Shown one piece after another: positions 3,518-20,320 of a DNA stretch of 20,320 nucleotides (positions are counted from its first letter, which is position 1; every line of letters starts with the position of its first letter). Under the pieces are notes generated by a model that was given only the letters and a program-made list of their open reading frames with translations, did not search any database and had not been told where the DNA came from. Location: the NCBI GenBank assembly GCA_038217285.1, contig JBBQPO010000088.1, forward strand, positions 1 to 20,320, read 5' to 3'. The stretch is from Chthonomonadales bacterium. GTDB lineage: Bacteria > Armatimonadota > Chthonomonadetes > Chthonomonadales > Chthonomonadaceae. The position numbers and the translations under genes were made by a program.

Positions 3518-3539
3518 CATAGCCTTCCGGTCAGTCAGG

Positions 3540-3571
3540 GAAAAGCCGAAGCAGTGTTGCTTCGGCTTTTC
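3540..3571. terminator. Bidirectional intrinsic terminator between the convergent PEP-CTERM gene and prcA
   Basis: Perfect inverted repeat GAAAAGCCGAAGCA-gtgt-TGCTTCGGCTTTTC with T tracts available on both strands. Confidence 0.85.
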
Positions 3572-3598
3572 TTATTCTTTCATTGCTTGGTATCGGGT

Positions 3599-4393: not shown

Positions 4394-4414
4394 GAATTTG
4401 CTCTCTATCCGACG

Positions 4415-5254: not shown

Positions 5255-5293
5255 ATCGTCACTCCGTTGCCTCGTCACGAGGCGATTCTTTGA

Positions 5294-5482
5294 TTATTGA
5301 CCGCTGCGCTGGCGGTAGCGGCGCGCGGCGTCCGGATCGACCCGCTTCATGCGTTTGAGCAGATCGCTGGTATCGGGCCGCTTGACATCGGGCTTGCCGG
5401 GACCATCACCGTCGCCGCTTTTGCGCAGCGGATCGGCAGGGGTGGTCGGCATCTGGCGTCGCTCTTCTCCTTGGAAGATCAT
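5294..5482 (-). CDS. ubact: Ubiquitin-like protein modifier UBact (Pup analogue)
   Basis: 62 aa from ATG 5482 behind AAGGAG: MIFQGEERRQ...DLLKRMKRVDPDAARRYRQRSGQ. The C-terminal R[ST]G[EQ] is the UBact signature. Sits between dop and prcB. Confidence 0.92.
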   Translation of the reverse strand: MIFQGEERRQMPTTPADPLRKSGDGDGPGKPDVKRPDTSDLLKRMKRVDPDAARRYRQRSGQ

Positions 5483-5511
5483 GGTCGTTGCTCCTTTTGG
5501 GTATCGATGCA

Positions 5512-7029: not shown

Positions 7030-7086
7030 AAGCGACCAAACAACTTTCGTCCTGGCAGGTTTTGTTGGCCGGGAGATTTTCAGGGT

Positions 7087-8898
7087 TTAGATGACGTTGC
7101 GGCGCGGGTTGGCGGCCTGCTTTTTGGCTTTGACCGGCTTCACCGTGGCGACATTGTCCGGCTCGTAGTCGAGCAGCTTCAGCCAGTCCTCAATCGAGTC
7201 GCCCTTGGGGAAGATCTCGTTCTCCTTAAACTCGACGCGAACCGCCTGTTTCAGGTCTTCGATATTGAGCCCTTCGATATCGGAGCGCTTCTCGATGCTG
7301 CGCTTGATGGCGAAGTCCTTGGCCCGCTCTACGACCGACTTGAGAAGCGCGCCGGAGACAAGGTCTTTCCAGTGCAGGATCTCCGTGCTGCCGTTGCGGA
7401 GATAGACCTCCAGGAACTCGGTGTCGTCGTCGCGGCGGAAGGTGTATTCGGTCGTCAGGTCGAGCAGTTCGTCCAGCGCACTGCACTCGTTGCCCTTGTG
7501 GTCGCGGATCAGAGTGGGATCGAGCGGCACATCGGACAGGTAGATCTTGTAGATGTCGCGGGAGGCGCGGCGATCCGGGCGCACGATCTTCACCTTGCGG
7601 TCGATGCGTTCCGGGCGCAGCACAGCCGGGTCGATGTAGTCCGGGCGGTTGGAGGTCAGCATCACGACAACGTTCTCCAGACTGACCAGGCCGTCCATCT
7701 CCGCGCAGAACTGCGGCACAAGCGTATTGGAGATGTTCATGTAGCGTCCGGAAGAGCGAGTGCGCAGCAGCGATTCGGCCTCATCGATGAAGATGAAGAC
7801 GAGATTGCCCTCCCGCGACCGTTCGCGGGCCTGTGCGAAGATATCGCGCACCATGCGCTCCGACTCGCCCAGCCACATATTCAGGATCTTGGGGCCGTTG
7901 ATGTACATGAAGTACTCTTTGACATCGAGGCCGGTGCGTTCGCGATACTCCTGCGTCAGGTTGTAGGCGGTGGCTTTGCCGATGAGGGTCTTGCCGCAAC
8001 CGGGAGGGCCGTAGAGCAGGATGCCTTTGAGCGGACGCTTGCCGAACCGCGCGAAAAGCTCCGGGTGCAGCAGCGGCAGTTCGATCGCGTCTTTGATAAC
8101 CCCGATGGCCTCTTCCTGGCCCCCGATCTTGTTCCAGGGCAGAATCGGCACCTCTTCGAGATAGTAGTCCATCGACTCTTTGGCGGAGAAATACTCCAGA
8201 GCACACTTGAAGTTCGGCTCCATGCGGACTTCGGAGCCTTGTTTCAGGGTCTCTTCGAGCAGTGGCTCGCCGCGATAGACGACCCGAGACGACATCCCCT
8301 GGGCGTCCATCGAGACGCGCAGCCGTCCATTCTCCAGCACTTCGGCTATCTTGACGATCGGGCCTTCGAGGGAGAAGCCGAGATCCCCGATGACGGCGAA
8401 CGCCTCGTTGACCTTGACCTGGGTGCCGACCTTGAACTCGGGGTTTTCCAGTTTGGGATCGACATTGGCGATATACTCTTTTTCACCCAGAGCGATGCGA
8501 ACGGTCTGCGGTGGCTTTTCCGGCTCCTGATCCAGGGGCTGCCCAAAGCGGCGGCGCGGTTTGGATCTCTTTTCGGGCTCGACCTTGCCGAGGAACACCC
8601 CGATGCTGTTGGCAGGCGATGTCAATTTGGCGTAGGCGTCTTCGAACTCGGCGATGGCTTTCTTGGCCTCGTCCATCATAGCCTCGTCGGTTTCGATCTG
8701 TTCGCGCAGGGCAGTAAGGTAGCCGAGACGCCCATCGTTGCGGGGCGTCATGCGAATAATTTCGTCAAGCAGCCACAAAGCCCGGAGTTGCATCTCCGAA
8801 GATGCAGATGGTCCGTCACCGGGCGGAAGGTTGTTATTATTGTCGCGGTCGCCGCCAAGGTCGTCGGCGTTGTCGCGTCGCTCACGGTCTCGTCGCAT
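7087..8898 (-). CDS. arc: Proteasome-associated AAA+ ATPase (ARC/Mpa family)
   Basis: 603 aa, AAGGAG RBS. N-terminal coiled coil ending KLTSPAN, OB-like region, Walker A GPPGCGKT, pore loop NMWLGE, Walker B FIFIDEAE, SNRPDYIDPAVLRPERID, DLVSGA. Confidence 0.93.
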   Translation of the reverse strand: MRRDRERRDNADDLGGDRDNNNNLPPGDGPSASSEMQLRALWLLDEIIRMTPRNDGRLGYLTALREQIETDEAMMDEAKKAIAEFEDAYAKLTSPANSIGVFLGKVEPEKRSKPRRRFGQPLDQEPEKPPQTVRIALGEKEYIANVDPKLENPEFKVGTQVKVNEAFAVIGDLGFSLEGPIVKIAEVLENGRLRVSMDAQGMSSRVVYRGEPLLEETLKQGSEVRMEPNFKCALEYFSAKESMDYYLEEVPILPWNKIGGQEEAIGVIKDAIELPLLHPELFARFGKRPLKGILLYGPPGCGKTLIGKATAYNLTQEYRERTGLDVKEYFMYINGPKILNMWLGESERMVRDIFAQARERSREGNLVFIFIDEAESLLRTRSSGRYMNISNTLVPQFCAEMDGLVSLENVVVMLTSNRPDYIDPAVLRPERIDRKVKIVRPDRRASRDIYKIYLSDVPLDPTLIRDHKGNECSALDELLDLTTEYTFRRDDDTEFLEVYLRNGSTEILHWKDLVSGALLKSVVERAKDFAIKRSIEKRSDIEGLNIEDLKQAVRVEFKENEIFPKGDSIEDWLKLLDYEPDNVATVKPVKAKKQAANPRRNVI

Positions 8899-8974
8899 CG
8901 GAATCTCCTTGCAGTGCGGGGTGCCGGCGAGAAATCGTTCCCGAAGGAAAAAGGGAGAACGGGTTTCTCACGCC

Positions 8975-8983
8975 AGTATATCA
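8975..8983 (-). promoter_or_regulatory. Candidate extended -10 promoter for the arc-dop-ubact-prcBA operon
   Basis: Minus strand TGaTATACT about 77 nt upstream of the arc start; no good -35 element. Confidence 0.4.
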
Positions 8984-9101
8984 TAAACTACGCGCATTGA
9001 ATAGCAGAAGTTTCTGACAGCGCGTAACATCCGTCTACTGAAATGGGTCGTACAAATGGGCAGTCCCGTCCCTGCTCGAATGGTCAGGCAACCCCTCGCA
9101 A

Positions 9102-9130
9102 TTGACCGGAAGCCCTGCCTGTGCTATGCT
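9102..9130 (+). promoter_or_regulatory. Candidate sigma70-type promoter for the HEAT-repeat gene
   Basis: TTGACC (9102-9107), 17-bp spacer ending TGc, then TATGCT (9125-9130), 46 nt before the ATG at 9177. Confidence 0.55.
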
Positions 9131-9176
9131 TTACGCAAGAAGGGCCACAGATTAAGTAAGAGAAGGGTCATCGGGC

Positions 9177-10166
9177 ATGGCTTCCAACAACAAGACACAG
9201 CAGAAAATCGAGGGGCTGCAATCGGACGACGTGAAAGTACGCAAGAAAGCTGCGCGCTGGCTGGGCCGCAAAGGAACTTATGACGCCCTGGCTTACCTGC
9301 TGGCCGCACTGAACGACAGCAGTTGGAGCGTCCGCCGCAACGCTGTCGTGGCCCTCGGCAAAATCGGCGAGGCCGAGGTCGTCGAGCCCTTGATCGTAAA
9401 GTTGTCGGACCGCACCGTCAGCGTCAGGCGCGCGGCCATTCAAGCGCTTGGCCGTATACGCGATCCCAGGGCGACCGAAGGTCTGGTCCGCTTGCACGCA
9501 CACGCCCAACTGGGCGCGGACGCGATACAGGCTCTGATCCAGATCGGGGCCTCCGCCCTGCTGATCTGCTGTGATCGGATGCTGAGGGAGAGGACCGGAT
9601 CTGAACCGATGGCAGGCATGGAACCGCCGTCTCGACTCATCCAGGTTGGACCCTCGACCCTACTCATCCGCAGGGATCGGATTCAGTTGCACGATACGGA
9701 ACCACCGTCTCCCTGGATGGCGGCGGCACGTCAGATGATACTGCGGGGAGCGGATCGACTGCTGATCGAGGTGTTGAGCGCGGAGGGCTGGAGTGGGCAG
9801 CAACGCTGGCAGGTTCTGGACTATGTACGCAAAATTCAGGGTTCTCTCCCGTTCTTCGAAGTGTGGAGTCTGACGAAGTTCAGTCGTATCACCGACATAC
9901 CAAGTTGGTGTGAACGGGCGTCTCGCGAGTTGGAACAGCCCGCAGTCCGTTCCGGAAGCAAGCAGATCCTGGACTATATCATGTTGGGTCGTGCCAGCCA
10001 GCGCGACTACGCCACAGAGGGCGAAGAGCTGCTTCGCGCCGCTGGAGGAACGAAAGAATGCGACACGGGCGAGACTCTCTTGCGCGCGGCTGACCGAACG
10101 ATCGAGGCCCCAGGAAATCTTTCGTTCCTCGGTCGCCTACGCCGCTGGTTAAAACAGGAAGATTGA
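9177..10166 (+). CDS. HEAT-repeat (PBS-lyase-like) protein
   Basis: 329 aa. Three repeats: VKVRKKAARWLGRKG, LNDSSWSVRRNAVVALGKIG, LSDRTVSVRRAAIQALGRIRD. C-terminal ELLRAA/TLLRAA motifs. Confidence 0.8.
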   Translation: MASNNKTQQKIEGLQSDDVKVRKKAARWLGRKGTYDALAYLLAALNDSSWSVRRNAVVALGKIGEAEVVEPLIVKLSDRTVSVRRAAIQALGRIRDPRATEGLVRLHAHAQLGADAIQALIQIGASALLICCDRMLRERTGSEPMAGMEPPSRLIQVGPSTLLIRRDRIQLHDTEPPSPWMAAARQMILRGADRLLIEVLSAEGWSGQQRWQVLDYVRKIQGSLPFFEVWSLTKFSRITDIPSWCERASRELEQPAVRSGSKQILDYIMLGRASQRDYATEGEELLRAAGGTKECDTGETLLRAADRTIEAPGNLSFLGRLRRWLKQED

Positions 10167-10175
10167 GAGAGCGCT

Positions 10176-10592
10176 ATGAATATTTCGGAGGAAGCCATCA
10201 TCTGGCGGACACGAGTGCGGTACGCGGAGACCGACCAGATGGGCGTGGTGCATCATGCCAACTATGCCATCTGGTTCGAGGCCGCCCGCAGCGAGTTCTG
10301 CCGCCTCCGGGGCATCGACTACGGACAGATCGAGCGCGAAGGGATGCTGCTCCCCGTCCTGGAACTGCGGGTACGCTACCTGCAACCGGCCCACTACGAG
10401 GACGAGTTGGATGTTCGCACCTGGGTCGTCGAGATTAGGCGCAGCCTTCTGCGCATCCAATACGAGGTCTGGCGCTCTGAAACCAAACTGGCTGAAGGCG
10501 AAACGCTCCAGATGCTCGTGGCGAAGGCCACTTTCAAACCGGTTCGGTTCCCGGCAGAGATGGCCGCCCTGTTCCTGCCACAACCGCGGTGA
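10176..10592 (+). CDS. Acyl-CoA thioesterase, 4HBT/YbgC hot-dog family
   Basis: 138 aa. RVRYAETDQMGVVHHANYAIWFEAAR signature, RYLQPAHYEDEL. Confidence 0.9.
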   Translation: MNISEEAIIWRTRVRYAETDQMGVVHHANYAIWFEAARSEFCRLRGIDYGQIEREGMLLPVLELRVRYLQPAHYEDELDVRTWVVEIRRSLLRIQYEVWRSETKLAEGETLQMLVAKATFKPVRFPAEMAALFLPQPR

Positions 10593-10710
10593 TTATCGAC
10601 TATTCGTGCCCGTCGGTTCAGAGGGCGCAGGCGATGGAGAGACGGGCTGTCTGCCTTCGTTTTCCGCAAAGAGATCTATCGTCATGGCCCTTGTCCTGGA
10701 AGGTAAGAGA

Positions 10711-11481
10711 ATGAAACTGAAATACCTGCCGCTGCTGATTGCCGCCCTGCTGCTGACCGTCCAGGGTGCCGGGGCGGACGAGGTTCTGGTTTCTGCGGCC
10801 TCCTCTCTAACGGACGCGCTCACGGAGGTAGGTGCCGCCTATACACACCTTCATCCGCGCACCACTGTACGGTTCAACTTCGGGGCGTCGGGCCTCCTGC
10901 AGCATCAGATCGCTCAGGGCGCACCGGTGGACGTCTTCTGCCCGGCCTCTCCGAAGGAGATGGATGCGCTGCAAAAGGAGGGCCGTATCGAGACGGCTGG
11001 CCGCATGGACTTTGCCGGGAACCGACTTGTCCTTATCGCTCCGCTCCGGGGTCGATTGCGCGGTTGGAGCGATCTTACCTCCCCGACGATACGGCGAGTC
11101 GCCCTTTCCGATCCCGGCTCGGTTCCTTCGGGCCGTTATGCGCAGGCGACCCTGACGAAGCGCGGACTCTGGGAGGCGGTGAGAGCGAAAGCCGTGTTCG
11201 GCACGAACGTCCGCCAGACGTTGACGTATGTCGCCAATGGCGACGCAGACGCAGGGTTTGTATTCAAGACAGACGCGCTGCACGATGCGGGCAAGGTGCG
11301 GGTCGTGTCGGAAGCGACGCCGGGCAAGGATCACACGCCTATCGTCTACCCGGTCGCAGTCGTTTCCCATGCGCCGAACCGTGTAGTGGCGCAGGACTTC
11401 GTGCTGTTTTTGAAGAGTGCCGCGGCCCGTAAAATTCTGGTGCGTTACGGCTTTACGCTGCCGGTGTCCGGCAAACACTGA
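10711..11481 (+). CDS. modA: Molybdate ABC transporter substrate-binding protein
   Basis: ATG 10711 gives a signal peptide (MKLKYLPLLIAALLL...AGA). Motifs VSAASSLTDA, FNFGASGLL..QI..GAPVDVF, GNRLVL, DPGSVPSGRYA, NVRQTL..V..GDADAGFVFKTDA, PIVYP. Confidence 0.92.
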   Translation: MKLKYLPLLIAALLLTVQGAGADEVLVSAASSLTDALTEVGAAYTHLHPRTTVRFNFGASGLLQHQIAQGAPVDVFCPASPKEMDALQKEGRIETAGRMDFAGNRLVLIAPLRGRLRGWSDLTSPTIRRVALSDPGSVPSGRYAQATLTKRGLWEAVRAKAVFGTNVRQTLTYVANGDADAGFVFKTDALHDAGKVRVVSEATPGKDHTPIVYPVAVVSHAPNRVVAQDFVLFLKSAAARKILVRYGFTLPVSGKH

Positions 11482-12164
11482 TGCCGACCGATCTCTCCCC
11501 CCTGTGGCTCTCGCTCCAGGTCGCCTGCCTCGGGACGGCGCTGATGTTGCCCTTTGGCCTGCTGGCGGCGTGGTGGCTCGGGCAGGGACGCTGGTTCCGG
11601 GGGAAATCGTTGATCGAGACGCTGTTCACGCTGCCCCTGGTCCTGCCGCCGACTGTAGTCGGTTATGGGCTGCTACTGCTGCTCGGACACGGAACCTCTG
11701 TCGGGCGCTGGCTGAACGACAGCGCCGGGCTGCGCCTGCTGTTTACGTGGCAGGGTGCGGCAGTGGCGGCGGCGGTGATGGCGTTTCCGCTATTCGTGCG
11801 CACCGCGACGGCGGCGTTCGCTTCTGTGGACCGGGAGCTGCTGGAAGCCGGGCGAACACTGGGCGCCGGCGAGTTCGACCTCTGGCGGAGCGTGACGATT
11901 CCCCTCGCATATCGCGGGTTGTTGGCTGCTCTGGCGCTCGGTTTTGCGCGGGCCCTCGGCGAGTTCGGCGCGACCCTGATGGTCGCCGGATCGATTCCCG
12001 GACGTACCCAGACCCTCCCGCTCGCCCTCTACGCCTCGGTTCAGGAAGGCCGCGATCACGAGGCGCTGGTCTACACCCTGCTCCTGACCGCGATGGCCTG
12101 CGTCCTGCTGGGAAGCCTCGGGGCCTGGCAGGGTCGCATCGCCACGGCGCGCGGAGAGCGCTGA
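11481..12164 (+). CDS. modB: Molybdate ABC transporter permease
   Basis: 227 aa, TGATG overlap with modA. PLWLSLQVA, LPLVLPPTVVGYGLL, EAA-loop ELLEAGRTLGA, FARALGEFGATLMVAGSIPGRTQTLPLA. Confidence 0.93.
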   Translation: MPTDLSPLWLSLQVACLGTALMLPFGLLAAWWLGQGRWFRGKSLIETLFTLPLVLPPTVVGYGLLLLLGHGTSVGRWLNDSAGLRLLFTWQGAAVAAAVMAFPLFVRTATAAFASVDRELLEAGRTLGAGEFDLWRSVTIPLAYRGLLAALALGFARALGEFGATLMVAGSIPGRTQTLPLALYASVQEGRDHEALVYTLLLTAMACVLLGSLGAWQGRIATARGER

Positions 12165-12171
12165 CAGCCTT

Positions 12172-13875
12172 TCAGAGCGGCACGGCGACGATGATCCTCT
12201 CGCGGGCCGCCCACATCTTCAGGACGACGGGCGCCTGTTTGAGCCAGAATCCAGACTGCCGCGACGACGCCGTTTTGTTGCATCGGCCCCGTGCCTGCAC
12301 GATCGCGCGGCGCTGGTTTTGCACCTCGATGGTCATGACGCGGCGTGACTGATCCTCTAAAGGCGTCCGTACCCGTAACGACCAGATGGAGATGCTGCCG
12401 CGCGCACAGGAGCGATCGTACGAGGCGACACAGTGCCGCATGGCCTTGCCCTCCTCCTGGAGTTGCCGTCGGGAGGTGAGCTCCTGCACCGTCCAGTGGA
12501 GAGCAGGACCGTCCTCCGAATCACCTTGCGTGTAGTCGAGCGGGACGATGTCGGGGCGCGGCTCCCACTCCAGCACGGCTTTGCGAATTTCACGTTGAAG
12601 CTCCTTGTGCCACTCATCGACCCTGCGCAGCAGCGCGGGAACGGTGCGCCCCTTCATGCAGAAACCTGGCTCCGGAATGGCCTGGATCGGAACGCCGTCC
12701 GGCCCCACAATCGGCTGCACGACGAATCGGCGATGGTTCAGAAAATCGATGATCGGGCCGACCTGATCGGGATCGAGCATGGGGTTGTTGACGAAGAAGT
12801 GCAATACGCTCGTCCAGAACTCCTCGTTCTGTTGGGAGGTTCCGAGGCGAGTCGCGATGAGCGCGCGGCACAGGCGCTCATCGGCGCCCAGCGCCTGCGC
12901 CTGTCCCCACCGTAGAGCCGCCTCGACGGGCAGGTCGGCTGGCGCCTGCAGAAAGAGGTGCGCCGCCCGACTGGTCAACGAGATCGGCAGGCCAGCCGTG
13001 CGGATGTTCTTGCCGATGCCGATGTGCCGGAACCACGCCTGATGACGGCGAGCCTCCGATGTCGTTCCTTCGAACCAGGCGGCATCGAGAAACGTGGGAA
13101 CCGGATAGTACGCCAGCAGATGGCGAGCGAGCGAGCCGAACTGACGGTGGGCGTTGTGCGTAGTAGGCTGCCAGTCATCCAGGGACCGCAGCCAGACGGT
13201 ATGATGCCGGGCAAGAGCGAGGAGAGCACCGAGGTAGGTGTTGCCATCCTGGGCTCCGAGGGTCGCCATGACGGGGTCGCAAGCGATCAGGTCTGTACTA
13301 TGCCTCTGCACGGTCAGGAGAAGCTGTAAGAAAGCGCGCCGTGCGGGGCCATCCTTGTCCAGAACGGAAAAGGCGGTATGGATCGCCCGTAGTACCGGAG
13401 AGTGAAGTTCCGAACCTGGGAGGCGTCCCTGATAGATCGCCTGCAGAGTCTCCTCGGGCTTGCGGACGTGACGCCGCCCCTTCTGGAAAGCCTCGGCGGC
13501 GCGTTCCTGCTCGCGCCGCACCGCTTCCTGCTTTCGCTGGTGCGCCGACTTGACTCCCGCCTGCGGGAACCCGTTGCTATCACACCAGGCCACATACTTT
13601 TCCTGGCTTGTAAAGCGCAGATCACGGATATGCTGTCGGAGGGCCGACCCGTCTTTGGCGTCCTCAGCAAGTTTTTGGGCACGCTGGATTTCGCGGCGAC
13701 GCTCCTGCCACGCCTTGTCGAGGGCGCTGCCGAATCCCTGCTCCCGACACCAGACCCGATACGCCGCGACCGACTCTATACCGAGGGCGCAGAGGTGCTT
13801 TTGAAGCTCTCCTTGTGGGGTCGAGGCAGTCGCAGTCAATTTCGTAACGTTCTGTTTGGCGGATTTTGCGGACAT
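12172..13875 (-). CDS. PcfJ-like domain protein with a duplicated N-terminal module
   Basis: 567 aa. C-terminal ELTSRRQLQEEGKAMRHCVASY...SIWSLR...MTIEV...IVQARGRCN is the PcfJ pattern. Central LARHLLAYYPVP.FLD.AW and GRT..ALLR.V.EWH motifs. Confidence 0.8.
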   Translation of the reverse strand: MSAKSAKQNVTKLTATASTPQGELQKHLCALGIESVAAYRVWCREQGFGSALDKAWQERRREIQRAQKLAEDAKDGSALRQHIRDLRFTSQEKYVAWCDSNGFPQAGVKSAHQRKQEAVRREQERAAEAFQKGRRHVRKPEETLQAIYQGRLPGSELHSPVLRAIHTAFSVLDKDGPARRAFLQLLLTVQRHSTDLIACDPVMATLGAQDGNTYLGALLALARHHTVWLRSLDDWQPTTHNAHRQFGSLARHLLAYYPVPTFLDAAWFEGTTSEARRHQAWFRHIGIGKNIRTAGLPISLTSRAAHLFLQAPADLPVEAALRWGQAQALGADERLCRALIATRLGTSQQNEEFWTSVLHFFVNNPMLDPDQVGPIIDFLNHRRFVVQPIVGPDGVPIQAIPEPGFCMKGRTVPALLRRVDEWHKELQREIRKAVLEWEPRPDIVPLDYTQGDSEDGPALHWTVQELTSRRQLQEEGKAMRHCVASYDRSCARGSISIWSLRVRTPLEDQSRRVMTIEVQNQRRAIVQARGRCNKTASSRQSGFWLKQAPVVLKMWAARERIIVAVPL

Positions 13876-14117
13876 AAATGGCTCTCAAGGGAAACGTTTC
13901 CTCTGTATCGTTCCAGAATCTGCGGACACTAAACACGATTAATCCTGTTTGCACCCGGCTCCTATGATACGGTGTGTATACGGTGGCATCGCATAATGAA
14001 GGTAAGTTGAGAAGGTCGTGCCGTTCACAAGCGTCTGCCTGATAGAGGAGCGCGGCTGTAAGGGTGACACTGCACGGGCCATTCCAACCCAATTTGTTCT
14101 TCAGGAGAAGCCCGATT

Positions 14118-14738
14118 ATGTTTCCCGTACAGTTCGTAACGTTCGCGCGGAGTTCACGCCGCGCCGCCAAGGGGTTGAGGGCTGCCGTGCGCCAGGCTGC
14201 GTCGGCTCGCCCGGTGAGCCTCCTCGCCGTGCCCGCAGCGCTCTGGACGCTGACGCTCTTCGGATGTGGCTCCGGCACCAGCGGCACTCCGGCAGGCGCT
14301 CCCGGCGGCGCCCCCCCCAGCGATAGCCTTATCATTAGCGGCCTGACGGCGAACACCACCATAGCGAAGAACGGCGCGTTCGTCGGCACGGCGCACGCCG
14401 ACAACTTCGGAGGGCAGTACTCCTTCGCCATCATTAAGGATCCGAAGGCATCCCCAGTGACCGAATTCTCCGGTGATATCTTTGTGACCTCCCCAAAAGT
14501 GGGTCAGACAATTGATCTGGCGAACGCCGCGCAAGGCAACCTGGCCTACCAGGAGAGCGGCAGTCTGTTCTACCTGGCGACCAGCGGCACGGAATCAATC
14601 GATGCCGTGAGCAGCACCTCCATTTCGATCACGTTCCATAACGCGCGGTTCCAGCCGCAGGCGGGTGGTACGGGTCCAGGAGCAACCGGTGAATTCACAC
14701 TCAACGGTACCGTCACTGCCCCCGTCACCAATCACTAA
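14118..14738 (+). CDS. Hypothetical lipoprotein
   Basis: ATG 14118 after AGGAG. Long basic n-region, hydrophobic stretch, lipobox LFG-C, Gly/Pro linker, then a beta-rich domain ending GATGEFTLNGTV. Confidence 0.7.
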   Translation: MFPVQFVTFARSSRRAAKGLRAAVRQAASARPVSLLAVPAALWTLTLFGCGSGTSGTPAGAPGGAPPSDSLIISGLTANTTIAKNGAFVGTAHADNFGGQYSFAIIKDPKASPVTEFSGDIFVTSPKVGQTIDLANAAQGNLAYQESGSLFYLATSGTESIDAVSSTSISITFHNARFQPQAGGTGPGATGEFTLNGTVTAPVTNH

Positions 14739-14833
14739 GGCAACTCCCAAGAATTACCGCTCCACATTCGAGCCCCTTCTGAACTCAACCGAGGCGAAAT
14801 TGTGGAGCGATAATAGTTTGGCGGTTCCTAACT

Positions 14834-14860
14834 TAAGAGAAGGGCCGGCGCGCTGGCCCT
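14834..14860 (-). terminator. Probable intrinsic terminator after the PilT-like gene
   Basis: Minus strand AGGGCCAGC-GC-GCCGGCCCT hairpin (one mismatch) followed by TCTCTT, immediately after the stop codon. Confidence 0.45.
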
Positions 14861-15940
14861 CTACTCTGATTTCAGGGCTGTCTCTGCGTACGGTCCCAGC
14901 CGCTCATGGTCCTCGATATACGTCCAGGCGGTTTCATAGCTGAGAATGCCCTGCCGGTAGCAACGGAGGATCGAATCGTCCATGGTCTGCATTCCCGCGT
15001 CACGGCCCGCCTCGATCCCCAGTGTCAGGTCGGCGGCGTTCTCCGCGATCATCCGGCGCATCTGCGGGGTGCCGAGCAGCACCTCGTTGACGGGGCACCG
15101 CCCCGACTGATCCGCGCGGGGCAGCAGACGCTGCGCGATCACCGCCGCCAGATTCCGGGCTACGGTGCGGCGAATCAGGTCGCGGGGCTCCGGGAAAACT
15201 TCGATGATCCGCCGCACGGCATCCGTCGCCCGCTCCAGATGCAGCGTGGACAGGACGAGGTGCCCCGATTCGGCCAGCGCCAGAGCGTACTGGATGGTCT
15301 CCAGGTCGCGCATTTCGCTGATGAGCACGACGTCCACATCCTCGCGAAAGGCGGAAAGCGCGCCCAACCGGAAGCTCGACACATCCTGGCCGATACTGCG
15401 CTGGGTGATGAGGCTCCGTTTGCTGACCATCTCGTACTCGATGGGATCCTCCAGCGTCAGAATACGCCGCGGCATCAACCGATTGATCCTCTCCAACAGG
15501 GCAGCGCAGGTGGTATTTCTGCCGCTGCCGGTCGGCCCCGTCAGCAGCACCAGCCCGCGCGGCAGTTCCGTCAGGGCTTCCAGAGTGCCGCGGATCCCGT
15601 TCGAATCGGGATAGAGTTGCTCTAGCGATGGCGGGTTCTGCGGCACGGGCCGGATGGCGCAGGCCAGTCGCCCCCGCTCGTAGTAGAGATGGTAGCGATA
15701 AGAGCGCCCCTCGCGCCGCACAGAGACCTCGACGTCCTGTCGATCCGACACCAGGCGCGACTTCTGGTCCTCCGAGAGCGGCGAGAGCAGGAGCGCGCTA
15801 AGCGCCTCCTCTTCCATCGCCTCCCCCTCTCTCCGCACTAGCGCGCCGTCGATCCGAAAGACCGGAGTCTGGCCCGCGACCAGGTGCAGATCCGATCCAT
15901 GCCGCTCCGCCAGTTCCGTTAACAGCGTATTCAGTTCCAT
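14861..15940 (-). CDS. PilT/PilU-family ATPase with a degenerate Walker A motif
   Basis: ATG 15940 behind AAGGAG. GSDLHLVAG..PVFRIDG, GLVLLTGPTGSGRNTT, Asp box ILTLEDPIEY, REDVDVVLISEMRD, His box GHLVLSTLH, GMQTMD. Confidence 0.88.
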   Translation of the reverse strand: MELNTLLTELAERHGSDLHLVAGQTPVFRIDGALVRREGEAMEEEALSALLLSPLSEDQKSRLVSDRQDVEVSVRREGRSYRYHLYYERGRLACAIRPVPQNPPSLEQLYPDSNGIRGTLEALTELPRGLVLLTGPTGSGRNTTCAALLERINRLMPRRILTLEDPIEYEMVSKRSLITQRSIGQDVSSFRLGALSAFREDVDVVLISEMRDLETIQYALALAESGHLVLSTLHLERATDAVRRIIEVFPEPRDLIRRTVARNLAAVIAQRLLPRADQSGRCPVNEVLLGTPQMRRMIAENAADLTLGIEAGRDAGMQTMDDSILRCYRQGILSYETAWTYIEDHERLGPYAETALKSE

Positions 15941-16027
15941 CTCCAGACTCCTTCTCTCTTGCAGAATGTGGGGCGTGCCCACGCATCATGAAAGGCGCGT
16001 ACTACCCAGGGATCTCCTCCCTGCGAA

Positions 16028-16429
16028 TCACACCAGAACGGACGTCGAGCGGCCAGCGGACGCGTAAGGCAGCAGCGGGGAAGGGCCGGATGGCCCTTCC
16101 TGTCGGCGCACCGACAGTTGGGCGCGCAGAGAGGCGACCTCACCGTGCAGCGATCGGACTTCGGCCTGCAGCCGACGCATCTCCGTGAGGATCTCCGCAA
16201 GGGCCTCGTGGTCGCTCTGCGCCCGGATCTCCTCCCGCACCCCTTCCCATACATCCCCGACCTCGACCAACCAGACGGCGGCCTGCCCACGGAGGAGGCG
16301 CTCCTCCTCCAGCGCCTGGGTGCAGTCCGGGCAGGTTTCCAGATGCGTCCGCACCTGGGTGGCAACGTGCGCGGAAAGCTCCGCGTCCAGCAGGGCAGTA
16401 AGCCGGGTTCGTATTGTCGAGCAGTTCAC
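16028..16429 (-). CDS. Zinc-binding (zf-HC2/ZAS) anti-sigma factor with a coiled-coil tail
   Basis: GTG start overlapping the sigma stop (GTGA). MNC...LTALLDAEL......VRTHLETCPDC (C...HxxxCxxC). Heptad LAEILTEMRRLQAEVRSLHGEVASLRAQL; no transmembrane helix seen. Confidence 0.85.
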   Translation of the reverse strand: MNCSTIRTRLTALLDAELSAHVATQVRTHLETCPDCTQALEEERLLRGQAAVWLVEVGDVWEGVREEIRAQSDHEALAEILTEMRRLQAEVRSLHGEVASLRAQLSVRRQEGPSGPSPLLPYASAGRSTSVLV

Positions 16430-16980
16430 CTCTGTTTGTCCCCTCCTTCGTTCCAAGCGCCGAGTCGCCGCCGCAGCGCCTCCACAGCAAGCCGCTTCCG
16501 GGACGCGACGGTCCCAACCGGGCACTCCAGCGTCCTCGCGATATCCGCATACGAAAGCCCCTCATAGTGGCTCAGCACAAACACGCTGCGCTGCAGCTCC
16601 GGCAGTTCTTGGACCGCGCGGCGCACCGCGTTCGCCAGGGCTCTGGCTTCTGCCTGTTGGTGGAGGCTGCCGCCAGGGGCGGGCAGATCCTCCGCCGTCT
16701 CCAGCGAGAGCGCCGGGGGCGCATCGCGGACGGCATCCAGACAGAGATTGCGTACAACTCGGAGCAGGAAGCAGCCGAGTTGGCCCTCCGGCCGATAGCG
16801 ACTGCGGGCGCGCCAGAGGCGCACAAAGGCCTCCTGGACCACATCCTCGGCAAACGTCCTGTCTGTCGGCAGCATGCGGCGGGCGAACCGCAGCAGGCGC
16901 GGCTGATAGGCGACCACCAGGCATCGAAACGCCTGCATGTCTCCTTCCGCCACGCGCTGCATCAGAATATCCTCGTCCAT
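16426..16980 (-). CDS. ECF RNA polymerase sigma factor
   Basis: DEDILMQRVAEGDMQAF, AEDVVQEAFVRLW, VRNLCLD (region 2); LPELQRSVFVLSHYEGLSYADIARTLECPVGTVASR (region 4). Confidence 0.92.
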   Translation of the reverse strand: MDEDILMQRVAEGDMQAFRCLVVAYQPRLLRFARRMLPTDRTFAEDVVQEAFVRLWRARSRYRPEGQLGCFLLRVVRNLCLDAVRDAPPALSLETAEDLPAPGGSLHQQAEARALANAVRRAVQELPELQRSVFVLSHYEGLSYADIARTLECPVGTVASRKRLAVEALRRRLGAWNEGGDKQR

Positions 16981-17076
16981 CTCCGCCCCCTTCACCCCAT
17001 TAAACGCGCGGAACGCCGCCGCGAATCACTCTATTTTGTAATCTACTCCTTATTTTGCTATCCGTCCTCCTGTCGT

Positions 17077-17250: not shown

Positions 17251-17536
17251 TGTGTAAAAAACGCCTTAACCTATTCGTCTGTTCCACGTTTGGGGCATCA
17301 GAAGCCAAAAAAAAAACTGAAAAATTATTCCAATTCGATATTTAGAGAAGGATTCATCTCTATCCCTGTTGAATTTTCGCACGACGGACGGATTTACGAG
17401 CTTTGCGTCGGCTATATATTCCTGATTGCTGAAACCGACAACACGACAGAGTATCCTGATAGAGGGTGCGAGTCAATACTGCTTCCAGTCTTCACACGAA
17501 CTCTACAACGTCCAACAAAAACAAAGGAGAACGAGG

Positions 17537-17836
17537 ATGGTTACCCCTGAAGGTGAGCGATTACGGCATGCCGCTGAAGTTTATCGCAACAAAGGCGACA
17601 TAAACAGTGCTGCAGAGGCCGAGCAGGCTGCGTCGCTGGCAGATGCATTCTCGGATCAAGCTCATCAAACTGAAGTTAACTTTAATAAAGGTCACAACCC
17701 TATCCCTGGTCCCGACGCGCCTCCTGGCCCCGACGCGCCTCCTGGCCCCGACGGTCCAGACGGTCATTCTGGCCCCGACGGCCCAGGTGGGCATGATGGT
17801 CCTGACGGCCCGGACGGCGGTCGGGACGGAGCATGA
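17537..17836 (+). CDS. 99-aa peptide: Ala/Glu-rich N-terminal half plus Gly-Pro-Asp (collagen-like) repeat half; candidate precursor peptide
   Basis: AAAGGAG RBS before ATG 17537. Sequence MVTPEGERLRHAAEVYRNKGDINSAAEAEQAASLADAFSDQAHQTEVNFNKGHNPIP-GPD-APP-GPD-APP-GPD-GPD-GHS-GPD-GPG-GHD-GPD-GPD-GGR-DGA. Repeat codons vary at synonymous positions. Confidence 0.8.
   Translation: MVTPEGERLRHAAEVYRNKGDINSAAEAEQAASLADAFSDQAHQTEVNFNKGHNPIPGPDAPPGPDAPPGPDGPDGHSGPDGPGGHDGPDGPDGGRDGA
17705..17824 (+). repeat. Coding tandem repeat (18-bp unit CCTGGCCCCGACGCGCCT, about 2.7 copies, continuing as degenerate 9-bp GGNCCNGAC units)
   Basis: Read directly from 17705-17752 and 17753-17824; encodes seven GPD triplets. 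Confidence 0.85.
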
Positions 17837-17872
17837 TTTTCTCGGTACGCAGAAAGTTCAAGAAAATACAGA

Positions 17873-20242
17873 ATGCAACATTCATTCCATTCTGAACAAG
17901 AAAACGCCTGGGAGCGATTGCGTCAATTGCTTCGCTCTCAGGCTATACTTCGTAACAGCGCAGAAACGCCCCTCGTCGATTTTCATGGCCGCCCGATGCC
18001 CTGGATCTATTATCAGTGGGCAACCAGCCTTACTCACGAAGGCGCGACGCTGGCTGCCGACTGTCTTCTGCACAGATTACAGCAGTTCGAGAGTACACAG
18101 ATCGCCAGTTATGGCATGACAGGCATTCCGCTGGTGACGTCTGTGCTTGTTCAAGGAGAGGGGCGCTACTCCGGATTGTGCCTTCGCCCGAAACCCGAAC
18201 CACACGGGACACGACGTCAAATCGAAGGAACGGGCGATAAAACCAAACCCGTCGTCTTGATTGACGACTGTATCTGTTCGGGGGCGTCGCTGCATAAAGC
18301 GTTCACAATCCTCGAAACCGAGGGATATCGAGTAGAAGGCGCGCTCTGTGTGGCTGAGTTTCCCTGGCAGGGGGGCATGGATTGGGCGCGGGCGCTCGGC
18401 TATCGCGTGGAGGCATTGTTCAATGTCTGGACTGACCTGGAAGCTCCTGAATCAAATCCCCCAGCCGGACATCGCAGAATCTCCCCGGAGTGGGACACCA
18501 GTTATCGCATTGCAGACGGCCTACCCCCCGCCGCTGTGGCACGCCATGTCATCCAACATTTCTTTGCAACGGGCGCTGCTCCCCTGCCACCCTTTCGGTT
18601 TGATCGCGAGTACAATGCGAGCGGGGGAGTCATCGTCAGCCTGCGCAATTGTTCCACCGACCGGCGGCTGGCTCGCGATGGCTTTTACCATCTCGTTCCA
18701 GGGGACGCCGATATGGGACGTGATGTTGTGCTGGCAACTCTGTTGGCAGTTCGATCCGCTAAACTGGATGCCTCCAGTTACGATATGGACCATGTTAAAA
18801 TCGGTGTAACTCTATTTGAGGACCATGAAGAGATAACACCTACCAAACTTGACTACGCGCGTTATGGTATCCTCGTCCGGAGCAAAGTGCATCCGTGGAA
18901 AAGCTCGGGTGCTTTGCCCAACACACAATTTTTTAACAGCGAGATCGAACAGTTACATCATGCCTGTCGTACCAATGCACGAATCTCCAGCACAGAACCC
19001 TATTCCCTTTATCGGCATACGGTCACCAAATCCGTTGAAAACGGTCAGGATTGGCCCCCTTATGGAGTTAGTCAGCAAGAAAACAGCCTTGCGGATATCC
19101 CTCCTTTCGGAGATGCACTGGTACAGCGTGTACGGGAGGCGATTTCCGCATTTTGCGCCTGTGAACCGATCTCGGGCGCCCCATTGCCGGAGAACTTGCT
19201 GCAACAGACGATCTATGGCGCGGCCGTCTCACTTTACCATCATGGGAAACTGGTTGGTTGCTGGACGTCCGCACAAGGCACTCTCGATACAATGCTGATC
19301 GATGCTGCGGAGAAGGCGTGGAAGGATGAGCGTTATGCGGAGTCTAAATCTGCCCTGTCTCTGTCGTCGCTTGAGGAAATGGCTGTCCTTGTCTCGGTCT
19401 TCGTCGGGCGTGAGCGCCTGGGACCAATCACTCAAGAACAGGCATCCCAACGGCTGCGGTTGGGGCGTGACACCCTCCTGGCTTACCAGGGGAAGCAGTC
19501 TGCCATTATGCTCTCTTTCATCCCATGTCAGTATGACTGGTCGAAACAGAAAATGGCACAGTCCGTACTTGCCAAATCCTCGCTCTCGGATCCTCCTGAC
19601 GGCTGGATCTTCTATAATACCAGATGTTGGCTTGCACATGCCGGTCAGGTGGGTCCATTGGATTTTGGCTATCTTGTCCGAAACTCCGGGGCAATGCCAA
19701 ATATTGAGAGTGACATTCGCCTGCTCAGCGACTATCTGCGGGACAAAATCGGTGACGATGGGCTCCCTGCCTATGTCTACTATCCTGTCTTCAATACGGA
19801 AACCGCAAAAGGCACTGCCGCGCGTATCATTCTCGCCTTGGATGCAATGATTTCGGCGGGACGCCTGTTGAATGCGCCGGAACTCTGCGAGGCAGGTATA
19901 AACGGGCTAGCATTCTGTTGTGATCATATTAGCGAACGAAGCAGTCCCCTTACTTTGAACATTCCCGAGATGGAATGCGGCATCGCCGCGGACGTGATGC
20001 TGGTATCCGCCCTGTATCGGGCGCAAGCCGAGGACATCCTGCACAGACCTCAGGTTAAGGGACTGGTCGCGAGATTAGGAACAATCTTCCATGCGGATGG
20101 TGCGATTACCTGGCAAAAACCCGGCCAACGCATCGGCGCCGACCACGACTTGTTTCCGGGGGCAGCACTCTATATGGCTGTGCAAAATCGCGTTCAAAAT
20201 GAACGGCGATTCCGTTTCAAAATGAACACTGATTCCGTTTGA
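17873..20242 (+). CDS. Multidomain protein: OPRT-like type I phosphoribosyltransferase + two AMMECR1 domains + helical (alpha/alpha-toroid-like) domain; probably truncated by an IS at about 20181
   Basis: PRT: GMTGIPLVT, LRPKPEPHGTRRQIEG, VVLIDDCICSGAS. AMMECR1 no.1 (about aa 219-389): GGVIVSLR, KLDYARYGILVR, GALPN, EQL, LYRH.V. AMMECR1 no.2 (about aa 416-586): GAAVSLYHHGKLVGCW, A.KDERY, LRLGRD. Then LSDYL...DDGLPAYVYYP...DLFPGAAL. The last 19 aa are read from repeat DNA. Confidence 0.75.
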   Translation: MQHSFHSEQENAWERLRQLLRSQAILRNSAETPLVDFHGRPMPWIYYQWATSLTHEGATLAADCLLHRLQQFESTQIASYGMTGIPLVTSVLVQGEGRYSGLCLRPKPEPHGTRRQIEGTGDKTKPVVLIDDCICSGASLHKAFTILETEGYRVEGALCVAEFPWQGGMDWARALGYRVEALFNVWTDLEAPESNPPAGHRRISPEWDTSYRIADGLPPAAVARHVIQHFFATGAAPLPPFRFDREYNASGGVIVSLRNCSTDRRLARDGFYHLVPGDADMGRDVVLATLLAVRSAKLDASSYDMDHVKIGVTLFEDHEEITPTKLDYARYGILVRSKVHPWKSSGALPNTQFFNSEIEQLHHACRTNARISSTEPYSLYRHTVTKSVENGQDWPPYGVSQQENSLADIPPFGDALVQRVREAISAFCACEPISGAPLPENLLQQTIYGAAVSLYHHGKLVGCWTSAQGTLDTMLIDAAEKAWKDERYAESKSALSLSSLEEMAVLVSVFVGRERLGPITQEQASQRLRLGRDTLLAYQGKQSAIMLSFIPCQYDWSKQKMAQSVLAKSSLSDPPDGWIFYNTRCWLAHAGQVGPLDFGYLVRNSGAMPNIESDIRLLSDYLRDKIGDDGLPAYVYYPVFNTETAKGTAARIILALDAMISAGRLLNAPELCEAGINGLAFCCDHISERSSPLTLNIPEMECGIAADVMLVSALYRAQAEDILHRPQVKGLVARLGTIFHADGAITWQKPGQRIGADHDLFPGAALYMAVQNRVQNERRFRFKMNTDSV

Positions 20243-20320
20243 ATTTGAACACCGATTCCGTTTGAATTTGAACACCATCGGAAACCTCTTCTGAGCAGAC
20301 TAGCGAGCAACGCGGGATAA
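20181..20320. mobile_element. Terminus of an IS21-family-like insertion sequence
   Basis: Starts 5'-TGC and carries four head-to-tail 22-23-bp repeats (20191-20212, 20213-20235, 20236-20258, partial 20259-20276), consensus CGTTTSAAWWTGAACACCGATTC. This is the multiple-terminal-repeat style of IS21-type ends. No transposase inside the window. Confidence 0.7.

Follow-up and report, generated by a model that had tools for sequence, protein, structure and literature searches.

The window analyzed here, a 20,320-nt stretch of a Chthonomonadales bacterium contig, carries near its end two co-oriented genes, a small acidic repeat ORF and a large ORF for a multidomain enzyme. The small ORF (17537..17836, + strand; ATG at 17537, stop at 17834-17836) encodes 99 aa with a net charge of -12. 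As an earlier note on this DNA had described, it has a strong ribosome binding site, read from the sequence as a Shine-Dalgarno-like AAGGAG (17524..17529, +) 7 nt 5' of the ATG, and it lies 36 nt upstream of the large ORF, which starts with an ATG at 17873. The translation also falls into the two halves described: residues 1-53 are Ala/Glu-rich, helical, and free of repeats, and residues 54-99 are made of Pro/Gly/Asp repeats with seven GPD triplets and seven DG dipeptides. Part of the repeat half is underlain by an in-frame 18-bp tandem repeat (17705..17753, +; 2.7 copies) that encodes PGPDAP units. One 73-nt contig from a single DNA run (depth 3.5) gives a weak indication of a variant with one extra in-frame 18-bp unit, differing at third codon positions only. 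A scan of the 36-nt gap found no terminator-like site between the ORFs, and a promoter scan returned one site that was no better than shuffled expectation. The peptide has no significant family match in Pfam or NCBIfam; against Pfam Collagen it scores 16.9 bits, below the gathering score of 27.2. Its N-terminal half matches an ORF (L086:530-982; BLASTP E 7e-9) upstream of the enzyme gene in a metagenomic relative, L086, whose enzyme is 49% identical to that of the window.

The large ORF is open from 17873 to 20242 (+; 789 aa), whereas members of the enzyme family usually have a length of about 940-960 aa. This agrees with the fusion of more than 770 aa proposed earlier as far as size and multidomain build are concerned, but the gene is not intact. 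Enzyme homology reaches only as far as codon 769 (nt 20180). From there on, the listed ORF, which is a truncated gene, runs into the left end of a multicopy transposon of the TG...CA type (20181..20320, +), from which codons 770-789 and the stop are read. This end starts with TGCAAAATCG and includes 23-bp subterminal repeats (20193-20276). A search with these repeats gave 21 matches in 15 contigs, 14 of which have the copy within ~150 bases of a stated contig end. Identical transposon ends occur on nine other contig ends, and the 6-nt string TGGCTG is common to the flanks. In one DNA run, read depth is 125-145 at the transposon end vs ~5-7 over the enzyme gene, and the contigs of one run include none that spans the insertion and no uninterrupted allele. 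The missing C-terminus (190 aa) is encoded on another contig (G000:C97:18666-19220, - strand). In this genome, the insertion into the barrel domain has inactivated the enzyme gene or, at the minimum, split it. The neighbors of the C-terminal fragment, a 689-aa ORF without a family and an M28/N-acetyltransferase protein, were considered as module genes and rejected; neither has a homologue at other loci.

Both genes lie in a segment of lower GC, as the earlier note had observed (0.52-0.56 from 17001 onward vs 0.57-0.675 over 1001-17000). We found no full-length enzyme in 60 related genomes (four of the same genus, 32 of the same family, and 24 of the same order), one of which gave a weak partial match to the barrel (E 2.6e-7). 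The module probably entered this genome by horizontal transfer.

Domain architecture of the enzyme

The native part of the enzyme (codons 1-769; 17873..20180, +) matches database protein P0001 at 100% and is 46-48% identical to full-length homologues of 925-963 aa. The fusion of a PRTase, two AMMECR1 modules, and a helical domain predicted in the earlier note was recovered by TIGR00336, PF01871, an OPRTase fold, and an (alpha/alpha)6 barrel, with a divergent first AMMECR1 copy.

The OPRTase-like type I PRTase domain (17942..18454, +; approximate limits, transferred from the model of homologue P0007) matches TIGR00336 (E 5.5e-14, residues 52-162 of the window protein) and contains the PRPP loop VVLIDDCICSGAS plus the flexible loop R-x-K..G..R-x-I-E-G. 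The P0007 structure model (pLDDT 94) has the OPRTase fold, a Rossmann-like PRTase core with a hood (Foldseek to 5hki_B, E 5.5e-10, target TM 0.91, rmsd 1.9). The PRPP loop of type I PRTases is characterized by an acidic pair, then small residues, then S/T-G-x-S/T, and that of the enzyme conforms. Both loops align with solved PRTases, the PRPP loop with that of 2p1z and 2wns. Residues D131, D132, and G137 of the PRPP loop are invariant in 31 sequences; the PRPP and catalytic-loop motifs are intact.

The first AMMECR1-like module (18482..19069, +; approximately residues 200-405) is divergent, with R-D-G in place of the AMMECR1 R-G-C. Taken alone, this copy matches PF01871 in two of four proteins (L053, 26 bits; L017, 19 bits) and in neither the window protein nor L001. 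The second module (19100..19666, +; approximate limits) is above the PF01871 gathering score (44.7 bits, cut-off 25, residues 421-573) and matches 1zq7, 1vaj, and 1wsc. The conserved AMMECR1 motifs, as given in PMC2034487, are RGChG and DxRa; the second copy has G-x-x-G-C and D-x-R-[FYW] in most, not all, of 31 sequences, with Cys conservation below 90%.

The C-terminal domain is an (alpha/alpha)6 barrel, the first half of which (19694..20180, +) precedes the insertion, with the rest on the second contig. Its fold matches 6shm_A (VIA-align Z 25.4, rmsd 3.1, 298 residues), 5zig_A (Z 25.4), and 1gsz_A (Z 24.1), and its invariant residues are W199, Q231, E256, D297, R312, R321, D323, and H327 (L001-fragment numbering). 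The barrel has no significant Pfam match, the best being GH76 in one homologue (E 0.057). In the ESM Atlas, the barrel gave unnamed clusters at 0.93, a first cluster with a GH127 member at 0.92, and GH127, GH88, and C5-epimerase clusters at no more than 0.88, all of which we treat as leads only. Because the top structural matches tie, the barrel fold does not choose between a sugar, isoprenoid, or peptide ligand.

With a charge close to neutral, the domains of the enzyme offer no obvious electrostatic complement to acidic partners. We found no Rosetta-stone fusion of enzyme and repeats in four long homologues; P0120 has a C-terminal extension that is kinase-like, not repeats. An apparent enzyme-repeat fusion at L007 was rejected, since the repeats there belong to an ORF of their own that overlaps the enzyme gene in a different frame. 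A complex prediction that paired residues 13-942 of the L053 enzyme with the N-terminal 68 residues of its partner, both supplied as alignments, gave no verdict (score 0.00) and weighs neither way.

The enzyme and its partners in other genomes

The earlier note had proposed collecting homologues of the fusion enzyme and scanning upstream of them for repeat ORFs, and the outcome was clearly positive. Our census comprises 59 genome loci with an enzyme homologue, the window being counted additionally. A co-oriented ORF with Pro plus Glu/Asp repeats lies within ~2.1 kb of the enzyme gene in 53 of these loci: directly upstream in 38, directly downstream in 11, and upstream but separated by a gene or gap in four; 49 of the 53 partner genes directly adjoin the enzyme gene. 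Two loci have a partner on the opposite strand only, and four have none, two of these being limited by contig ends. As a control, the motif density reached by 15 of the 59 upstream ORFs was reached by only five of 452 distant genes. The pairing of the small ORF with the enzyme is confirmed as exceeding chance, given the L086 match to its N-terminal half and the recurrence at 53 loci.

The enzyme family has 693 representatives at 50% clustering (E <= 1e-30, fragments included), and hosts include Acidobacteriota, Actinomycetota, Pseudomonadota, Eremiobacterota, Chloroflexota, Myxococcota, and Desulfobacterota. Most partners are 79-625 aa long with dozens of repeats each, and composition and short motifs are the only sequence likeness between partner classes. 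For partner family A (E-L-P, poly-Gly, coiled coil), an HMM from seven seeds, searched against 10,041 stop-to-stop ORFs, found 18 matching ORFs at 17 loci, each of them in the upstream position. This family matches no recognized family in Pfam or NCBIfam; within it, the invariant positions are the E and P of E-x-P motifs. The corresponding enzyme clade has a support of 100 and draws its hosts from Acidobacteriota, Alpha-, Beta-, and Gammaproteobacteria, and Actinomycetota. Across host phyla, the enzyme tree tracks partner class: the 12 partner classes require 15 changes on the tree (minimum 11; shuffled mean 35.8; none of 200 shuffles as low), a statistic that is inflated by kinship among loci.

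Several subfamilies have RiPP-type partners or neighbors. The L032 partner matches the microviridin-type core model NF033738 (32.5 bits vs cut-off 26), and both L032 and L038 encode an MvdD-like ATP-grasp; in L032 the partner adjoins this MvdC/D-like ATP-grasp. rSAM genes occur in four loci only; the one run against NCBIfam, which lies between partner and enzyme in L042, is a RiPP rSAM C-methyltransferase (TIGR03975, above cut-off). Lant_dehydr_N (LanB-like) proteins are encoded nearby in L004, L005, and L047, 2OG oxygenases in seven loci, TTL-family genes in two, and an M14 carboxypeptidase in one. The L011 and L055 partners match NHLP models (E 4e-4 to 1e-3) under their cut-offs, the L004 partner matches Pfam LigA (28 bits vs 25.3), and the L002 partner scores 19.7 bits against Pfam Collagen. 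Other partner matches in Pfam and NCBIfam are compositional only (collagen, formin FH1, procyclin, MSCRAMM SD-repeats, TonB). Among the 211 neighbor ORFs of the 59 loci, we found no Memo domain, one Macro domain gene, and no other ester-ribose hydrolase. The neighbor ORFs also include no regular RRE domain, protease, or exporter; most loci are without a protease or exporter, and transporters are sporadic.

The interpretation in the earlier note is partly supported. The link of AMMECR1 to Memo and radical-SAM genes that it had brought in does not apply here; none of the 211 neighbor ORFs has a Memo domain. The arrangement also differs from the classic RiPP layout of a leader with a short core, given the length and repeat number of the partners, their downstream position in 11 loci, and the lack of a regular protease. 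The chemistry suggested for the peptide in the earlier note, such as phosphoribosylation or ligation at Asp/His, is still hypothetical. Its central proposal, a precursor-like peptide with a dedicated modifying enzyme in an uncharacterized pairing, stands, because the homologue scan is positive and several subfamilies carry RiPP hallmarks.

Candidate functions and relation to known systems

The two-gene unit is probably an undescribed protein-modification system. We found no published description of the enzyme-repeat-protein pairing; PRTase fusions might be mentioned by Burroughs et al. 2019 or in the supplementary lists of AMMECR1 contexts and fusions that accompany PMC2034487 and PMC4075521. 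We give about an even chance to the small and large ORFs forming a two-gene module in which the four-domain enzyme has the acidic repeat protein as its dedicated substrate (precursor). The partner would dock via non-repeat helices, which, depending on subfamily, may be an NHLP-like leader, a coiled coil, or the helical N-terminal half of the window peptide. The OPRTase-like domain would bind PRPP and transfer, or otherwise use, its 5-phosphoribosyl group on a nucleophile present in every repeat unit, the likeliest being the side-chain carboxylate of a Glu or Asp beside Pro. Holding the chain, or processing the ribosyl adduct, could then fall to the paired AMMECR1 clefts and to the (alpha/alpha)6 barrel with its likeness to sugar enzymes, and in some lineages the same protein may be tailored further by a 2OG oxygenase, SDR, ATP-grasp/TTL, RiPP rSAM methyltransferase, or LanB-like enzyme. 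The analysis establishes that the pairing is conserved, which folds the domains have, and that the PRPP and catalytic-loop motifs are intact; we infer the covalent modification of the partner, PRPP as its donor, and the residue that is hit. The specific version of this proposal, a PRPP-dependent post-translational modification (phosphoribosylation or PRPP activation) of Glu/Asp beside Pro with the AMMECR1 modules as the peptide-handling part, is tentative, and we consider it possible though doubtful. We know of no PRTase directed at carboxylates. Other points that speak against the partner as a substrate are the loci that have no partner or have it on the other strand only, the sparse sequence likeness between partner classes, the near-neutral enzyme domains, the single Macro domain gene as sole candidate ester-ribose hydrolase among the 211 neighbor ORFs, and the usual lack of a protease or exporter.

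The enzyme could instead act on a small molecule (nucleotide, sugar-phosphate, or isoprenoid-linked), leaving the repeat protein as an unmodified scaffold, regulator, or acidic-mimic inhibitor. Small nucleophiles are the normal acceptors of PRTases, the barrel matches sugar hydrolases/epimerases and terpene cyclases equally (Z 24-25), many loci consist of just two genes, and PMC2034487 and PMC4075521 predict RNA-base modification for AMMECR1. We nonetheless judge this unlikely, since some partners have RiPP leader-like N-termini, a microviridin-type core, and RiPP maturases alongside, and since the invariant E and P of family A are more readily explained as sites of recognition or modification than by mimicry through bulk acidity.

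The neighboring genes bear on another reading as well, a conflict, defense, or toxin-antitoxin-like pair in which the enzyme would use up or change PRPP or nucleotides and the fast-evolving acidic repeat protein would neutralize it or serve as a decoy. These neighbors are biosynthetic tailoring enzymes, not defense genes; the module is retained in cultured free-living Actinomycetota and Proteobacteria amid ordinary metabolic genes; and no PADLOC-DB 2.0 family was matched at E <= 0.01 by either product of the window pair or by two homologues. Such a pair is therefore quite improbable in our view, even though it would fit the patchy distribution (0 of 60 related genomes with a full-length copy), the low-GC island, the hypervariable partner, the transposon strike on the enzyme gene in this genome, and the patatin genes near three loci and group II intron reverse transcriptase near one. 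That the small ORF of the window arose by chance from a tandem repeat and stands beside the enzyme gene by coincidence might be argued from its short length, low complexity, and lack of a significant family match, including its subthreshold Collagen score. The strong ribosome binding site, the non-repetitive N-terminal half conserved in L086, a position matching the partners of 53 of the 59 loci, and, weakly, the in-frame repeat variant with synonymous differences make such a coincidence very improbable.

We return to the reading of the partner as the substrate of the enzyme and to what it would mean. AMMECR1 is an orphan domain, conserved from archaea to humans, and the human gene is a disease gene. 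To our knowledge, none of its published function predictions has been experimentally tested. Here, a PRPP-type transferase, two AMMECR1 modules, and a sugar-enzyme-like barrel make up a single polypeptide, which is tied to an encoded partner class in more than 50 loci. This turns the orphan domain into part of a directly testable candidate enzyme-substrate pair. Cultured hosts with an intact pair include Hamadaea tsunoensis DSM 44101 (L017), Microbacterium deminutum JCM 14901 (L014, L018), Paraburkholderia humisilvae (L035), Dyella subtropica (L023), and Cellulomonas alba (L026), all of them non-pathogenic. Modification of the partner with PRPP, if it occurs, would be a novel chemistry for protein and RiPP maturation and would yield a new class of repeat-protein product. 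As far as we know, PRPP-dependent modification would then be the first described, and would be the first biochemical role for AMMECR1.

The enzyme resembles PyrE and other type I PRTases in fold (TM 0.91 to the Mycobacterium tuberculosis OPRTase, 5hki), PRPP loop, and Arg/Lys-rich flexible loop. However, it carries three more domains in the same chain and has a repeat protein as its partner, and its TIGR00336 score (52.3 bits) is far under the equivalog cut-off of 106.8, so it is not PyrE, which does not imply inactivity. Likewise, its second AMMECR1 module resembles AmmeMemoRadiSam protein A in passing PF01871 and matching solved AMMECR1 proteins but scores 33.6 against TIGR04335 (cut-off 99). 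Unlike in AMMECR1, the Cys of RGChG is not invariant in the enzyme family, and the module occurs twice, in one chain with a PRTase and a barrel. Memo-AMMECR1 systems are reportedly covered by Burroughs et al. in J Biol Chem; the loci here differ from the AmmeMemoRadiSam system in having no Memo gene and no regular radical-SAM partner among 211 neighbor ORFs. The barrel has the full-length fold of GH76 mannanases, cellobiose/GlcNAc 2-epimerases, GH88/GH105, and class II terpene cyclases, but is only 10-16% identical to them. The catalytic residues specific to these families are Asp-Asp in GH76, a pair of His in the AGE epimerases, and DxDD in the cyclases.

Modifications directed at Glu/Asp, such as ADP-ribosylation, the SidE-type phosphoribosyl linkage, and TTL tubulin polyglutamylation, place ribose-phosphate or amino acids onto acidic or disordered tails. 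These systems serve as a working analogy only, as they use NAD+ or ATP, not PRPP, and have no sequence relationship to the pair described here. Compared with RiPP precursor-maturase pairs (NHLP/Nif11-type; microviridin/graspetide with MvdC/MvdD), the partners here are long, highly repetitive, and sometimes downstream, the core enzyme is outside the known RiPP maturase classes, and RRE, protease, and exporter are not regular. The two share a ribosomal precursor gene, here a putative one, that adjoins a dedicated large enzyme, and a precursor that combines non-repeat leader-like ends with a variable repeated core.

The gene pair and its interruption by a transposon

The peptide gene (17537-17836, plus strand) encodes 99 aa and has an AAGGAG 7 nt ahead of its ATG. 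Its translation consists of a non-repetitive, Ala/Glu-rich half (residues 1-53) and a repeat half (residues 54-99) with seven GPD triplets and seven DG dipeptides, part of which comes from an 18-bp unit repeated in tandem at 17705-17753. The enzyme ORF, listed at 789 aa, begins at 17873, and the 36-nt gap between the two ORFs contains no terminator-like site. From 17001 onward, GC is 0.52-0.56, versus 0.57-0.675 across 1001-17000. The earlier note had described just such a pair (99-aa ORF, ribosome-binding site, GPD and DG repeats, short gap, lower GC), and since coordinates and all of these features match, its description is accurate. X1, the only DNA run covering the region, has a 73-nt contig (depth 3.5) with one additional in-frame repeat unit, which differs from the window's units at third codon positions only; this single contig suggests that repeat number varies in the population, with selection at the protein level.

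Homology to the enzyme family stops at codon 769, beyond which the listed ORF runs for 20 codons within a mobile element. The left end of this element (20181-20320) begins TGCAAAATCG and contains 23-bp subterminal repeats. The missing 190 residues are encoded at the end of C97, another contig of the assembly, where the opposite end of the element, closing GGAATGTACA, stands ahead of them. The 6-nt TGGCTG is common to both flanks, as expected of a target-site duplication. Based on the homology stop, the remainder on C97, and the flank duplication, the enzyme gene is split by a clean transposon insertion, which is probably recent. The element, known here from its ends, is multicopy; its termini are TG...CA, and each end holds several of the 23-bp subterminal repeats. 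This repeat occurs in 21 copies across 15 contigs of the assembly, in 14 of them within about 150 bases of the contig end, and the element end reaches a depth of 125-145 in X1 versus about 5-7 for the enzyme gene (about 20-fold). A search of 60 related genomes turned up no full-length enzyme and, in one of them, a weak match to part of the barrel; this absence and the low GC point to horizontal acquisition of the module.

Elsewhere, the window includes a complete UBact-proteasome locus (738-8898, minus strand): a Mpa/ARC ATPase (7087-8898), a Dop-like Pup-ligase-family gene (5512-7029), UBact (5294-5515; PF20513, E 8.8e-23), proteasome beta (4415-5278) and alpha (3599-4393), and a PafA-like ligase (738-2210). 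The long plus-strand ORFs at 2564-3517 and 3554-5293 are probably shadows because they are family-less and overlap these genes. Beyond lie genes for a HEAT-repeat protein (9177-10166), an ABC-type binding protein and permease (10255-12164), and, all on the minus strand, a PcfJ-like protein (12172-13875), a T2SSE/PilT-type ATPase (14861-15982), a zf-HC2 anti-sigma (16028-16525), and an ECF sigma factor (16426-16995). Neither the T2SSE ATPase nor the PcfJ-like protein was found adjoining the enzyme at other loci.

Domain architecture of the enzyme

A word-indexed search yielded 109 homologues, nearly all 900-990 aa, with sources named as Armatimonadota, Bryobacteraceae, Gemmatimonadota, Polyangiaceae, Eremiobacterota, and Hamadaea. 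Of 1.84 billion representatives searched by profile, 693 matched at E <= 1e-30, including fragments. In the window enzyme, Pfam AMMECR1 scores over threshold at residues 421-573 (44.7 bits), while an OPRTase-like stretch at residues 52-162 matches NCBIfam TIGR00336 (E 5.5e-14), far under the equivalog cut-off. Identities as PyrE and as AmmeMemoRadiSam both failed the equivalog test, and for the latter the Memo context is absent as well.

AlphaFold predicts four domains for P0007, a homologue of 941 aa (88-sequence alignment; pLDDT 94, pTM 0.92): a PRTase domain (about 25-195; Foldseek 5hki_B, E 5.5e-10, target TM 0.91), a divergent AMMECR1 module (about 205-400), a second AMMECR1 module (about 405-590) matching 1vaj, 1zq7, and 1wsc (E about 1e-8), and an all-alpha (alpha/alpha)6 barrel (about 600-941). 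The family profile alignment to solved PRTases covers the PRPP loop, whose two Asp are invariant in the family, as well as the Arg/Lys flexible loop. Taken alone, module 1 matches PF01871 in two of four proteins, the window enzyme being among those with no match.

Modelled by itself, the C-terminal domain is again predicted to be an (alpha/alpha)6 barrel (pLDDT 95.5). It matches GH76 mannanase 6shm_A and cellobiose 2-epimerase 5zig_A (both Z 25.4), glucose 2-epimerase (24.8), YteR (24.5), squalene cyclase (24.1), and GH88 (23.9), and on such modelled similarity the ligand cannot be named from fold alone. At locus L055, a second operon (3987-9333, minus strand) beside the full enzyme encodes a 410-aa protein that is a barrel domain by itself, sharing 49% identity with the C-terminal piece from the window's genome, and a GPEGPE/Pro-rich protein of 295 aa whose N-terminus is NHLP-like; TP_methylase-like and TTL-like genes complete it. 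The 1370-aa family member P0120 is extended at its C-terminus by about 430 aa with an H-G-D-x-x-x-x-N motif, which we take to resemble aminoglycoside/choline-kinase-type phosphotransferases.

Repeat partners and neighbouring genes across loci

For a partner census, we fetched 59 genome loci encoding an enzyme homologue and flagged ORFs with any one of a partner-family HMM match, at least six acid-x(0-2)-Pro motifs per 40 residues, at least three VVEFAGP-like units, or at least two GGEGGGG runs. A co-oriented flagged ORF lies directly upstream at 38 loci (L020, one of these, rests on separate analyses) and directly downstream at 11 (L001, L003, L006-L009, L012-L014, L026, L050); separate start codons were checked at L001, L006, L007, L013, and L014, plus L028. 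At four more, the upstream partner is separated from the enzyme by an ATP-grasp gene (L032, L038), an rSAM gene (L042), or an 825-nt gap (L011). Two loci have a flagged ORF on the other strand only (L010, L055) and four have none (L034, L039, L045, L052), L045 offering just 371 nt upstream and L052 having its enzyme cut by the contig end. Five motifs per 40 residues are reached by 15 of the 59 upstream ORFs, versus 5 of 452 control genes well away from the enzyme.

The best-defined partners, family A (about 140-170 aa), are laid out as E-L-P, poly-Gly, E-L-P, and helix, then repeated once more; in the E-x-P motifs, E and P are invariant, as are three helix residues. Among 10,041 stop-to-stop ORFs, the family A HMM (7 seeds) finds 17 loci, in the upstream position only. 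The remaining classes are pure repeats of up to 625 aa: PE[LF]PER, PE[VI]G, PE[IVT]PE, ERPERP with DIVEVVE, EVPDHS, IEAPEP, EVAPEIRP, PEPEPE, GPEGPE, and PDGPDG. Common to the classes is short-period Pro plus Glu/Asp, and 27 of 28 listed partners have net negative charge.

We also fetched ten metagenome loci from the window's enzyme clade. The earlier note had predicted upstream ORFs with a conserved N-terminal half and variable repeats, and this pattern is found in L086, whose enzyme is 49% identical to that of the window. Its upstream ORF matches the window peptide (E 7e-9, 38% across 85 residues) in a region that takes in the non-repetitive N-half and a common Q-x-E-x-x-F-N-K stretch, followed by different acidic G/Q/P/D/E/S repeats. 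That the window's small ORF is spurious we regard as highly improbable. L078 and L079 have the partner downstream, with PEPEPE and then DS and GK runs.

On a FastTree of 55 enzymes, which adds the window, L078, and L086 and leaves out L012, L037, L043, L047, L052, L056, and L058 (frames broken or cut), the 12 partner classes require 15 changes (minimum 11, shuffled mean 35.8, 0 of 200 shuffles as low), which is clustering, not co-evolution, since related sequences share labels. The window enzyme groups with L002, L086, L001, and L078 (support 100). Enzymes with family A partners (n=14) form a single clade (support 100) hosted by Acidobacteriota, Alpha-, Beta-, and Gammaproteobacteria, and Actinomycetota, and this spread over several phyla is consistent with the two genes having been transferred together.

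Among 211 neighbouring ORFs, called by our own GC3-GC2 heuristic and searched with Pfam, there is neither a universally conserved neighbour gene nor a Memo domain. Tailoring enzymes recur in subsets of loci: 2OG-Fe(II) oxygenase and SDR (seven each), B12/radical-SAM of about 615-640 aa (four), Lant_dehydr_N proteins of about 880 aa (three), MvdD-type ATP-grasp, TTL, and TP_methylase (two each, the ATP-grasp directly upstream of the enzyme), M14 carboxypeptidase (one), and MFS transporters (several). By NCBIfam, the L032 partner is over the cut-off of a microviridin/marinostatin RiPP model (32.5 bits vs 26) and its ATP-grasp neighbour resembles MvdC/MvdD maturases (E 1e-48, under cut-offs); the L042 rSAM is over that of TIGR03975, a RiPP maturation C-methyltransferase (560 bits vs 282), and the L011 and L055 partners have NHLP-like N-termini, under cut-offs. 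The L004 partner is over the Pfam LigA cut-off (28 bits vs 25.3). At L032 (4386-5992), a hybrid precursor has two microviridin-like Y-P-S-D cores set among G-I-E-A-P-E-P repeats and comes before, in this order, the MvdC/D-like ATP-grasp and the PRTase-AMMECR1 enzyme; L038 (1-1288, cut by the contig start) has repeats only, then ATP-grasp and enzyme in the same order. At one Terriglobia locus, L041, the enzyme is closely followed by a gene for a group II intron reverse transcriptase/maturase (9566-10939).

Possible roles of the pair

The observed features are a dedicated repeat protein and an enzyme whose PRPP-binding domain is catalytically plausible and which also carries two AMMECR1 clefts and a sugar-enzyme-like barrel. 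The repeat protein may be the enzyme's substrate: the recurring Glu/Asp would receive a phosphoribosyl group from PRPP, or be activated by it, and the remaining domains would hold the chain or process the adduct. We put the chances about even that the partner serves as covalent substrate in a PRPP-dependent step; Glu/Asp phosphoribosylation specifically is a tentative and less likely proposal. The same features could belong to a small-molecule enzyme with the repeat protein as its non-covalent partner, which we consider unlikely. A conflict module is a rather improbable reading, and PADLOC gave no match.

We found no published description of this architecture or pairing in full-text searches of the literature on AMMECR1, RAGNYA, and AmmeMemoRadiSam. 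An RNA-base role has been predicted for AMMECR1 (PMC2034487, PMC4075521). The enzyme's component domains are members of known superfamilies. Judged from sequence, the pair would belong to the general kind of a precursor with a dedicated maturase, and there is a real chance that its chemistry is new.
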